Assembly: GCA_951406725.2 (NCBI GenBank)
Contig: OX597835.1
Coordinates: 6,014,001-6,078,000 of the forward strand
DNA: 64,000 nt
Source of the DNA: Octopus vulgaris
Lineage: Eukaryota
Direction of reading: 5' to 3'
In this document: one piece after another, positions 5,992 to 54,269 of the stretch
Layout of the letters: each line of letters opens with the position of its first letter
Numbering within the stretch: the first letter of the stretch is position 1
Notes under the pieces: model-generated
Seen by the model: only the letters and a program-made list of their open reading frames with translations
Database searches by the model: none
Told to the model about the DNA's origin: nothing
Position numbers and translations under genes: made by a program

Positions 5992-6408
5992 GCACAAATT
6001 TGTTACCCCATAATCAAAATATATTTGGCTTCCACGTAACAAATTTCCTGAATGTTTCTAATTATTATTTCGAAAAGACTTCTAATATTGACCGGAAATT
6101 ACAAGTGTCGCGTATTTCTCTCGATTAACTGTCTCTTTAATTATGTGATGTGAGGTCGTGAAGGCTGGAAGCAGAAATCAAACATTTGACGTATTTTTCT
6201 GTTGCGAAGAATGAAAGAAAGAAAGAATTAATTTCTTTCCAAACCAATTTTGGTCTAAACTGAATAACGAAACTTTCTCTGACCGCAGTCATAATGTTTG
6301 GAAAATATAGATTTTAACGTAAGCACAAGGCTTATAAATTTGCGAACAGATGTACAGCTGATGTCTTCGACCCCAGTATTTCACTGGTACTTTATTTTAT
6401 TGGATGAG

Positions 6409-6505
6409 GGATCACTCGGCTCGTCTGTCGTTGAAGAGCGCGGCTATCCGCGTGAACTGATGCGAATTGCAGGACTCAGTGAACATCGACACCTCGAACG
6501 CACAT
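6409..6505 (+). pseudogene. 5.8S rRNA retrocopy fragment
   Basis: GGATCACTCGGCTCGT..GTCG.TGAAGA.CGC.GCTA...GCG.GAA.T.ATG.GAATTGCAGGAC...TGAACATCGAC...TCGAACGCACAT follows the conserved 5' two-thirds of metazoan 5.8S rRNA; no ITS, 18S or 28S context. Confidence 0.9.
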
Positions 6506-6506
6506 A

Positions 6507-6826
6507 GTAGAGGCGCAATGGCCCAGTGGTTAGGGTAGCGGACTCGCGATCGAATGATTGCGGTTTCGATTCCCAGACCGGACGTTGTGTGTGTTTATTG
6601 AGCGAAAACACCTAAGGCTCCACGATCCCCCGGCAGGGGGTGGTGGCGACCCCTGGTGTACTCTTTCGCCCCAAATTTCTCTCACTCTTTCTTCCTGTTT
6701 CTTGAGTAACGCTGCGATGGACTGGCGTCCCGTCCAGCTGGGGGGGAACACATACGCCACAGAAACCGGGAAACCGGGCCCATGAGCCTGGGTAGGCTTC
6801 AAAAGAGCGCTTAAATAAATAAAAAA
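6507..6826 (+). mobile_element. SINE family C (tRNA head, tail type X), co-inserted with the 5.8S fragment
   Basis: GAGGCGCAATGGCCCAGTGGTTAGGG...GGTTTCGATTCCCAG; A-rich tail; 15-bp direct repeat ACTTTATTTTATTGG at 6389-6403 and 6827-6841. Confidence 0.9.
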
Positions 6827-7169
6827 ACTTTATTTTATTGGTTCCAGAGAATGAAAGACGTGATTTGAATTTGGAACAAAGAGAGATGTAGTTAAATACC
6901 GCAAGGTATTTCCTTCTACACGCTAATTATTCTACCTCTACATATCCCTATAAACTAATCAATAATTCTTTATTTGATAATTGATACTATCATTAATTAA
7001 TACTAATTGCTATTTCTTTACTGGCTCCAAATGCTGTTACATTGAATTTGAGTAGCCTTAAGCCGCACAAGTGCAAACCAGAAAGCATAGCTAATAACCT
7101 TATGTGCAAGTGTGACGATTTTCAGCAGAGAAGAGCCAGGGAAGCCGAAAAAAAGGAAAGGACAATATA

Positions 7170-28215: not shown

Positions 28216-28606
28216 AGGAGGGGGAAGCACTCCGTCGGTTACGACGATGAGGGTTCCGGTTGATCCGAATCAACGGAACAGCCTGCTCGTGAAATTAACG
28301 TGTAAGTGGCTGAGCACTCCACAGACACGTGCACCCTTAACGTAGCTCTCGGGGATATTCAGCGTGACACAGAGAGTGACAAGGCCGGCCCTTTGAAATA
28401 CAGGTACAACAGAAACAGGAAGTAAGAGTGAGAGAAAGTTGTGGTGAAAGAGTACAGCAGGGATCACCACCATCCCCTGCCGGAGCCTCGTGGAGCTTTA
28501 GGTGTTTTCGCTCAATAAACACTCACCACGCCCGGTCTGGGAATCGAAACCGCGATCCTATGACCGCGAGTCCGCTGCCCTAACCACTGAGCCATTGCGC
28601 CTCCAC
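28216..28606 (-). mobile_element. SINE family C (tail type Y), full length
   Basis: 13-bp TSD ACAAGGAATGTAA at 28203-28215 and 28607-28619; head and body shared with 6507-6700. Confidence 0.93.
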
Positions 28607-51098: not shown

Positions 51099-51481
51099 AG
51101 ATAAATTTTAATTTTCTTAGAAATTTTTCATGTTTCGGTTCCTCTTGAAAAATCGAACCTTATCAAAAATATTTTTAAAAGTTAAGTGTAATAAAAAAAG
51201 TTCATAATTGTTTCTTACTAGTCTCAACAGAGTCCACGTCGTGGTGTTTTGTGGGGGGGGGGGGGGGGGGGCAGTATAATGGCTGTCTTGTGCGTTGACT
51301 AGATTCGTTGGCTGTAATTGTATATATATATATATACATATACATAAAGACAAATAAATAGATAATCAGATACACTGAAATATATCAACTCTGGCATACA
51401 TGACAGGAATATAGACTGTATTTAAGTTTACAATGTGCGTATGTGTGTGTACTTTTCTGTCTGCTATAGAGACGTACACTT

Positions 51482-53610
51482 ATGTATGTGTGTGCAAATA
51501 TATTACATATATAGATGTATGTGTGTGCATATATATTACATATATAGATGTATGTGTGTGCATATATATATTACATATATAGATGTATGTGTGTGCATAT
51601 ATATATTACATATATATATGTATGTGTGTGCATATATATTACATATATATATGTATGTGTGTGCATATATATATTACATATATAGATGTATGTGTGTGCA
51701 TATATATATTACATATATAGATGTATGTGTGTGCATATATATATTACATATATATATGTATGTGTGTGCATATATATTACATATATAGATGTATGTGTGT
51801 ACATATATATTACATATATAGATGTATGTGTGTGCATATATATTACATATATAGATGTATGTGTGTGCATATATATATTACATATATAGATGTATGTGTG
51901 TGCATATATATATTACATATATAGATGTATGTGTGTGCATATATATTACATATATAGATGTATGTGTGTGCATATATATATTACATATATAGATGTATGT
52001 GTGTGCATATATATTACATATATAGATGTATGTGTGTGCAAATATATTACATATATAGATGTATGTGTGTACATATATATTACATATATAGATGTATGTG
52101 TGTGCATATATATTACATATATAGATGTATGTGTGTGCATATATATATTACATATATAGATGTATGTGTGTGCAAATATATTACATATATAGATGTATGT
52201 GTGTGCATATATATTACATATATAGATGTATGTGTGTGCATATATATATTACATATATAGATGTATGTGTGTGCAAATATATTACATATATAGATGTATG
52301 TGTGTGCATATATATATTACATATATAGATGTATGTGTGTGCAAATATATTACATATATAGATGTATGTGTGTGCAAATATATTACATATATAGATGTAT
52401 GTGTGTGCATATATATTACATATATAGATGTATGTGTGTGCAAATATATTACATATATAGATGTATGTGTGTGCATATATATTACATATATAGATGTATG
52501 TGTGTGCATATATATATTACATATATAGATGTATGTGTGTGCAAATATATTACATATATAGATGTATGTGTGTGCAAATATATTACATATATAGATGTAT
52601 GTGTGTACATATATATTACATATATAGATGTATGTGTGTGCATATATATTACATATATAGATGTATGTGTGTGCATATATATATTACATATATATATGTA
52701 TGTGTGTGCAAATATATTACATATATAGATGTATGTGTGTGCATATATATTACATATATAGATGTATGTGTGTGCATATATATTACATATATAGATGTAT
52801 GTGTGTGCATATATATATTACATATATAGATGTATGTGTGTGCAAATATATTACATATATAGATGTATGTGTGTGCAAATATATTACATATATAGATGTA
52901 TGTGTGTGCAAATATATTACATATATAGATGTATGTGTGTGCATATATATTACATATATAGATGTATGTGTGTGCATATATATATTACATATATAGATGT
53001 ATGTGTGTGCATATATATATTACATATATAGATGTATGTGTGTGCAAATATATTACATATATAGATGTATGTGTGTGCAAATATATTACATATATAGATG
53101 TATGTGTGTACATATATATTACATATATAGATGTATGTGTGTGCATATATATATTACATATATAGATGTATGTGTGTGCAAATATATTACATATATAGAT
53201 GTATGTGTGTGCAAATATATTACATATATAGATGTATGTGTGTGCATATATATTACATATATAGATGTATGTGTGTGCATATATATATTACATATATAGA
53301 TGTATGTGTGTGCATATATATATTACATATATAGATGTATGTGTGTGCAAATATATTACATATATAGATGTATGTGTGTGCAAATATATTACATATATAG
53401 ATGTATGTGTGTGCATATATATATTACATATATAGATGTATGTGTGTGCAAATATATTACATATATAGATGTATGTGTGTGCAAATATATTACATATATA
53501 GATGTATGTGTGTGCAAATATATTACATATATAGATGTATGTGTGTGCAAATATATTACATATATAGATGTATGTGTGTGCATATATATTACATGTATAG
53601 ATGTGTGTGT
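51482..53610. repeat. 33/35-bp minisatellite, roughly 60-65 units
   Basis: Unit TATGTGTGTGCA(A/T)ATATATTACATATATAGATG with an optional extra TA; no unique spacers. Confidence 0.97.
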
Positions 53611-54269
53611 GCGCGCTTTTAGTTTTTTTTGTTGTTTATGCCAACATTATTTTTGTATATTGCGTTATGTTTGTTTTCTATTTTTCATCGTCTGCCCAGA
53701 CATATTAATTTTGTTATGAATACCATGTCATGTATATCAGGAACCAGTCACGTGTTTAGGGACGTTTCCGAAACGCCGAGCATCAACAGAGTCTAATCCC
53801 AATACTGTCATAAATAAACACTCTCTACTTTTGGAGTCAGAAATGGTTTTTCCTTTTGTCTATAAACTCAAATTACACACACGTACACACGGACACACTG
53901 ACACACGGACACACGGACACACGGCCAACACACACGATCAAACCTACATGTATTTCTGCACATACTCATACATACACACTATGCATACCTTCATACATAC
54001 ATGCACACATACTTATACATAAATATATACGTACATGCATATATTTATATATTTTTGTAAATATGTAAACATATATAATTGCTTATATATTTGTAAATGC
54101 GTAGCATAGAATTTACGAGAGATTATCTCTATATTTGTCTATAAAAGAACACAACTTTGTGTATTAATAACTCGTCTCAAAATCTCAAGGCAGCTAGAGG
54201 CATGTTATTGTTCAATGTCTTATATATAAGACATATTTGTGTATGTATGTTTCTAAGTATGTGTATATG

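Follow-up and report, generated by a model that had tools for sequence, protein, structure and literature searches.

Recurrent joining of 5.8S rRNA to full-length SINEs in the Octopus vulgaris genome

At one locus of the Octopus vulgaris genome, a piece of 5.8S rRNA is followed by a full-length SINE within a single pair of direct repeats (TSD), which raises the questions of how the two parts were joined and how often such joining has occurred. The initial annotation of the 64-kb stretch of DNA that contains the locus (hereafter the window) had proposed a single chimeric insertion, and left a choice between a one-off jump of a reverse transcriptase (RT) and membership in an undescribed 5.8S-SINE family. 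To answer these questions, we analysed the locus, the dispersed copies of 5.8S in the genome, the junctions at which they are joined to SINEs, and other RNAs joined to the same SINEs.

A comparison of the window with Rfam gave one match, RF00002, at positions 6396-6531 (73.5 bits, gathering threshold 42, E 2.4e-16), and no other match over the whole window. The match runs past the 5.8S end into the SINE, which is an overshoot of the model. Comparison with the genome's own rDNA, an array of seven copies about 18 kb apart on contig C20 in which 18S, 5.8S and 28S were located, confirmed the annotated 5.8S and extended it slightly, from 6409-6505 to 6401-6505. The features of the locus are as follows, with 5.8S nucleotides counted from the start of the Rfam model.

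6367-6388, minus strand: left part of an old SINE-B-type remnant, from the rebuilt empty site
6389-6403, plus strand: left TSD, 15 bp, identical to the right copy; its last 3 nt, TGG, are also nt 6-8 of the 5.8S
6401-6505, plus strand: 5.8S rRNA copy, nt 6-110, from RF00002 and the comparison with the genome's own rDNA
6506, plus strand: single extra A, absent from rDNA and from the ordinary SINE head
6507-6826, plus strand: full-length SINE of family C, from comparison with ordinary copies and relatives
6519-6529, plus strand: A-box-like motif within the SINE head
6562-6573, plus strand: B-box-like motif within the SINE head
6812-6826, plus strand: A-rich tail at the 3' end of the SINE
6827-6841, plus strand: right TSD, 15 bp, identical to the left copy
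6842-6857, minus strand: right part of the old SINE-B-type remnant, from the rebuilt empty site

The 5.8S part differs from the genome's rDNA at 4 of 105 nt (96% identity), starts near the mature 5' end, is truncated at the 3' end, and carries neither ITS1 nor ITS2. Its first 3 nt are common to the left TSD and form a microhomology at the 5' junction. One and the same 15-mer stands at 6389-6403 and 6827-6841 and nowhere else in the window, so the perfect repeats that had been reported around both parts are borne out. The SINE was correctly described as full-length and in the same orientation as the 5.8S, but the two are not in direct contact. Because ordinary copies of the family-C SINE open with GTGG right after the TSD and continue with AGGCGC, the SINE start was placed at 6507 with one A before it; this A appears to be non-templated, from either an RNA tail or an addition by RT. 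The A-box-like and B-box-like motifs, which are presumptive, are the basis for a tRNA origin of the head. No tRNA was found in the SINE head with ARAGORN or Rfam, and when folded the head gave a long hairpin instead of a cloverleaf.

Against the best of its relatives, 40 of which were scored out of 4058 candidates, the focal SINE has 90-93% identity, and it has 17 mismatches over 318 nt against the majority of 29 relatives. The letters A to D used here for SINE families are working labels, with exemplars taken from the retrieved loci. Two other family-C heads in the window, at 28606 and 36385, lack the 5.8S as annotated; they match from the SINE start on and no further upstream. The proposal that removal of the insert restores a SINE-B remnant held in part, as the rebuilt empty site does match other SINE-B-type copies in the window, but the match is weak, at 76% over 54 nt and E 0.003. 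The focal locus is confirmed as 5.8S plus a full-length SINE inside one TSD, in support of a single chimeric insertion; no function is implied for it. Elsewhere in the window, a tandem array with more than 60 copies of 33-35-bp units was observed at approximately 51337-53700.

Copies of 5.8S were then counted over the whole genome (2.8 Gb, 227 contigs). Two 24-nt patterns with at most 3 mismatches gave 89 and 99 matches, which together with 40 scored matches defined 121 loci, all of which were analysed; older or shorter copies are missed by this census. After exclusion of 29 loci that belong to rDNA or to long fragments of it, and of another 7 with ITS1, 85 dispersed copies remained. A full-length SINE head was located 0-20 nt downstream on the same strand in 52 of the 85, where the chance of a head so placed is about 0.003 (about 0.3%) per site, based on the density of heads in the window (19 in 64 kb). 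The SINE partners in these 52 chimeras belong to four families (42 B, 4 C, 4 D and 2 A). Among the other 33 copies, classed by eye, 8 adjoined a truncated SINE or a tail piece, about 5 had a decayed head or a longer linker, and 4 retained ITS2, the remainder having other partners or none. As separate observations on the rDNA itself, the unit is about 18.3 kb long (L041-L042; G000:C20:24040000-24059999), and the 18S in the C20 unit, at about 2650 nt, is far above the 1831 positions of the Rfam model.

In 47 of the 52 chimeras the 5.8S starts at nt 4-14, and the ends are spread over nt 34-158. A TSD around the whole 5.8S-SINE unit was detected in 19 of 52, compared with 2 of 207 mismatched control pairs, and mostly exactly at the SINE 3' end; 33 of 52 had none by the strict test. 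Mean divergence was 6.5% for the 5.8S halves and 7.4% for the SINE halves, and their concordance in age was weak (rho 0.33, p 0.059, n=33). Two pairs of loci, L044/L067 and L082/L200, have shared flanks and are probably DNA duplications, and the number of independent events is therefore put at about 50. The focal junction pattern was matched once in the genome, and breakpoints, linkers, SINE families and flanks vary among the chimeras. Neither of the two options offered initially fits these results: the focal fusion is one of many such fusions and not a one-off event, and the genome carries about 50 independent 5.8S-SINE events and not a family. Variable junctions had been named in advance as the sign of recurrent switching, and this is what the genome-wide comparison of junctions revealed.

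Some dispersed copies stand apart from this pattern. At L031, L040, L090 and L193 the 5.8S starts at nt 0-3, compared with nt 5-9 in most retrocopies, a difference that may recall the 5' ends of long and short 5.8S. At L039/L045, L043 and L056, the 5.8S is joined to other repeats, which we take to resemble the 5' ends of LINE-type elements; no LINE-like ORF was seen by eye in four extended 5.8S loci with non-SINE partners.

The bases between the 5.8S and the SINE were compared after trimming of the 2-3 nt with which ordinary SINEs start. The linkers have a median length of 6.5 nt, with 12 of 52 being 0-1 nt and 38 of 52 at least 3 nt long, while ordinary SINE copies with a TSD have about 0-3 extra nt (few copies, judged by eye). 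The T-minus-A content of the linker increases with the end point of the 5.8S (rho 0.70, p 9e-7, n=38), also after removal of one possible duplicate (rho 0.68) and within family B alone (rho 0.80, n=30). Linkers following truncated 5.8S are A-rich, whereas those following near-full-length 5.8S are T-rich. For ends at nt 150 or beyond, 16 linkers have a majority of T and 3 of A, and for shorter ends, 14 have a majority of A and 3 of T, with 2 ties; likewise, linkers open with T in 16 of the 19 cases at nt 150 or beyond and with A in 15 of the 19 with shorter ends, the cut at nt 150 having been picked after viewing the data and the rank correlation alone being independent of it. All 12 copies that end at nt 157, those joined to SINE tails included, continue with T where rDNA has C, and TG, the product of CpG decay, is present in one of the 12. 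Linkers rich in T are found in front of SINE tail pieces as well, which shows that they go with the 5.8S side and not with the partner.

Such linkers are likely to be fossil tails of RNA decay or maturation. In other animals, 5.8S has been described as uridylated at its 3' end (in part of PMC7472701), and faulty rRNA as oligoadenylated for the exosome (in parts of PMC4361047 and PMC6232586). The T-rich linkers are mixed (103 T in 158 nt) and not pure U runs, and U6 chimeras carry extra bases too. It is therefore probable that RT also added bases, and a portion of every linker may stem from such addition or from the SINE leader. The A-rich linkers contain 18 G and 19 T in 173 nt, and a reading of the G as mixed tails of the TENT4 type was dropped because T is equally frequent. 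The focal linker is one base and does not separate a tail from an RT addition.

We also found that 5.8S is not a uniquely preferred partner. U6 was joined to the same SINEs in 19 of the 30 best loci, with 7 full heads and 12 truncated (by eye, one read on the other strand), and to another repeat in 3 more; 1-8 mixed extra bases were seen by eye at the U6 joints. 5S was joined to SINEs in 11 of 14 copies examined, to 4 full SINEs and 7 tails, several with a 5S 3' trailer. Within 20 nt, the limit used for U6 and 5S too, SINEs were joined to the 3' end of 28S in 4 of 14 loci examined (of 68 matches) and of 18S in 3 of 41 (of 46), and to the 5' end of 18S in 4 of 72 (2 of which gave no alignment) and of 28S in 2 of 23; copies from rDNA or genes are counted in the denominators for 18S, 28S, U6 and 5S. 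The 5' ends of 18S and 28S are rarely involved. What is caught is any RNA that is abundant and has a free 3' end, including U6, 5S, and 18S and 28S at their 3' ends, so that 5.8S adds a new partner to a process already known.

What differs is the state of the SINE. The ratio of full-length to truncated partners is 52:8 for 5.8S, while U6 has 7:12 (p 5e-5) and 5S has 4:7 (p 1e-3), the U6 and 5S samples consisting of best-scoring copies only, classed by eye. The same excess was observed within family B, with 42 full and 3 truncated partners against a background of 11:18 (p 3e-7) that includes a few chimeras and tandem copies. The AA that opens ordinary B copies is retained in 33 of the 42 B partners and presumably marks the primary 5' end of the SINE RNA.

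Several further arrangements were observed among the joined RNAs. A SINE tail piece about 55 nt long, with a near-constant start, is a frequent partner of U6, 5S and 5.8S (L022, L057, L175, L096, L106-L108, L117, L119, L120, L315, L337, L341 and L343), which suggests either a short RNA of its own or an RT stop fixed at the base of the 3' stem-loop. Dispersed 5S copies on SINE heads or tails (L336, L338, L339, L342 and the 5S-tail loci) retain the internal Pol III promoter, and such fusions could be founders of 5S-headed SINEs. At L313:251-1750 (minus strand; G000:C25 near 5354954), an open frame of about 420 codons, truncated at its 5' end, is preceded by 5S twice in tandem, with the 3' trailer on both copies. 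The frame has no Pfam match and presumably resembles a Penelope-type RT/endonuclease, and the whole is possibly a triple chimera from serial jumps. At L128:780-2284, a LINE copy is interrupted by an 18S 5' fragment, on one side of which an RT domain is present (Pfam RVT_1); this is a DNA-level insertion rather than a chimera.

The annotation's proposal of a single insertion through a jump of RT is supported, and we consider it likely that the RT of a LINE ran off the 5' end of SINE RNA and jumped onto the tailed 3' end of a 5.8S. Target-primed reverse transcription would begin on the SINE tail, and at the 5' end of the SINE RNA the enzyme would run off and jump end to end, sometimes aided by microhomology. 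The acceptor would be a 5.8S with a post-transcriptional tail, copied as the linker; truncated decay intermediates would bear oligo(A) (TRAMP/TENT4-like) and near-mature ends a U-rich tail (TUT/DIS3L2-like). Synthesis would then reach the mature 5' end of the 5.8S, and the product would be joined to the target, at the focal locus via 3 nt of microhomology and from an acceptor cut at nt 110 with a linker of one A. The chimeric products are dead ends without further amplification. Jumping fits because the donors are full-length with a presumed primary 5' end and the acceptors are tailed. No partner LINE sharing the SINE tails was found; RT fragments were present in the retrieved loci, and none was tied to SINE tails.

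The same anatomy of one TSD, same orientation and retained RNA tails would arise if the 5.8S had first been ligated to SINE RNA, by RtcB or by an RNA ligase that uses 3'-OH and 5'-phosphate ends, and the fused RNA had then been retrotransposed. Ligation has been demonstrated for U6/L1 (in part of PMC6789731), and the linkers of 0-1 nt in 12 of 52 units, the focal one included, are what clean ligation of a cleaved RNA would leave. However, the ends that RtcB requires are a cyclic phosphate and a 5'-OH, while a 3'-OH or a 5'-triphosphate blocks it in vitro, as described in the same part of PMC6789731. The 38 linkers of at least 3 nt look like tails ending in 3'-OH, and most partners have the SINE 5' end in full, presumably with a triphosphate. 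A strict RtcB pattern has no extra bases and a variably truncated partner; these linkers and the 52:8 ratio depart from it, while the focal linker of 1 nt alone does not decide for or against it. U6, an RtcB-type substrate, has the opposite partner profile here (7:12). For the 5.8S-SINE units we therefore favour jumping, with prior ligation being unlikely, although a ligase other than RtcB may have acted.

A chimera could also result from two separate events, in which a 5.8S retrocopy or rDNA fragment was followed by a SINE at its end, or the reverse. Dispersed rDNA fragments (29 + 7 of the 121 loci) and dense SINEs would provide the opportunity, and 33 of 52 units have no detectable TSD. This is nevertheless very improbable given the one perfect TSD around both parts at the focal locus, and the 52 of 85 copies with an adjoining head, all on the same strand, against a chance of 0.3%. 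None of the 52 units has the remainder of the 5.8S after the SINE, by which insertion of a SINE into an older 5.8S copy was rejected, and a short match to an inner TSD was seen in one of 52. Twin priming, which inverts the 5' part, was ruled out by the same orientation at the focal locus and by the lack of any head-to-head arrangement among the 85 dispersed copies. More doubtful still, and largely refuted, is a self-amplifying SINE family with a 5.8S head. Two junctions occur twice (nt 74 + AA + B and nt 153 + A + B), and L026 is a second family-C chimera that breaks near nt 110. Yet the repeated junctions lie at points of resemblance, judged by eye, between the 5.8S and the SINE head, L026 has a different SINE 3' part, the pairs L044/L067 and L082/L200 resemble DNA duplications, and the single genomic match of the focal junction, the ends over nt 34-158 and the four SINE families all argue against a family. 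Least probable is an assembly artefact that joined abundant rDNA and SINE reads. Among the listed contigs, none bridges the joint of left flank and 5.8S or that of 5.8S and SINE, and they stop at 6397-6398; contigs of four runs fragment in repeats, none of them bridging or contradicting the two 5' joints. The joint of SINE tail and right flank is spanned by contigs of runs X1 and X2 (X1 may be the source sample) and by an X5 contig with 23 gaps, and an X10 contig aligned from 6827 onward only, with 18 further letters unaligned, is a mere hint of an empty site. The perfect TSD and the age-consistent mutations in both parts (3.8% and 5.3%) speak against an artefact, and the tail pattern over 38 loci is not expected from misassembly.

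If jumping onto tailed 5.8S is the correct reading, the fossil tails would constitute in vivo evidence for end-to-end jumping, separable from the route that joins U6 and 5S to truncated partners. A broader view, which we regard as evenly balanced, is that germ-line machinery routinely jumps from full-length SINE RNA to intermediates of rRNA quality control, and that the genome is a fossil tail-seq record of oligo(A) and U-rich ends. The linkers may also record germ-line rRNA tailing. The chimeras also show how new SINE heads get sampled, and the lack of a promoter in 5.8S heads is suggested as the reason why they found no families. With about 50 independent 5.8S cases beside U6 cases of a different profile, the question of switching versus ligation becomes testable by counting; template switching was left open for small RNAs other than U6 in part of PMC6789731, and the tailed 3' ends of 5.8S and their full-length partners fit RtcB chemistry poorly.

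We found no 5.8S-SINE chimera in a search of literature listings and abstracts; an earlier mention, for example in subscription journals, Repbase reports or supplements, is possible. The tailless retropseudogenes of Noll et al. 2015 are likewise 3'-truncated copies from a mature 5' end but have no retroelement part, unlike the 5.8S-SINE units; their screen covered 5.8S, and nucleolar rRNAs were under-represented (in part of PMC5322556). In the main text of an octopus repeat annotation (PMC13282606), small SINE/5S and SINE/U families are given, which may be such chimeras, and neither 5.8S nor chimeras are mentioned. SINE3/5S, SINE28 and SINEU similarly have an RNA-gene head on a SINE body, and SINEU-2 gained 5' extensions through repeated template switches (in parts of PMC10946416 and PMC4494074). 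Those families amplify from master copies, whereas the 5.8S chimeras have no common junctions; a family with an RNA head shares one head-body junction, and the focal junction has one match. Entries for rDNA-derived TE parts in the review PMC10946416, in the part that lists them, include 5S, 28S and IGS and not 5.8S.

The closest known systems are the chimeras of U6 with LINEs and SINEs, known from the L1, L2 and RTE clades, such as U6-L1, U6-Mon1 of platypus and U6-AnolisSINE2 (in part of PMC4476161, whose main text has no occurrence of "5.8S"). As in those, a small RNA lies 5' of a retroelement in the same orientation within one TSD, in many independent events, and U6-SINE chimeras occur in O. 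vulgaris too. The focal unit has the broad features of the U6/L1 type, namely a 5' part from a cellular RNA without spacers, a tailed retroelement in the same orientation and one TSD. Unlike the U6 chimeras, the 5' partner here is the Pol I-derived and often 3'-truncated 5.8S, the 3' partner is mostly full-length, and the non-templated linker is tied to the 5.8S end. Chimeras of LINE-1 with 5S, 28S, tRNA, 7SL, Y, 7SK, U3 and U5 (in part of 10.1101/2025.02.02.635956, with no occurrence of "5.8S" in the main text) also have rRNA fragments at the 5' side, their 28S pieces being mostly sense; their partners, however, are L1, and their 5S pieces are mostly antisense through twin priming, an arrangement seen in 0 of 85 copies here. 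Known template jumping by RT also runs off the donor 5' end onto an acceptor 3' end, as proposed here, but the evidence in our case is genomic and not biochemical, the enzyme would be that of a putative LINE, and the donors are trans-mobilised SINEs. Within this known class of chimeras, 5.8S as a partner and the junction signature, in which the linker is tied to the 5.8S end, are new.
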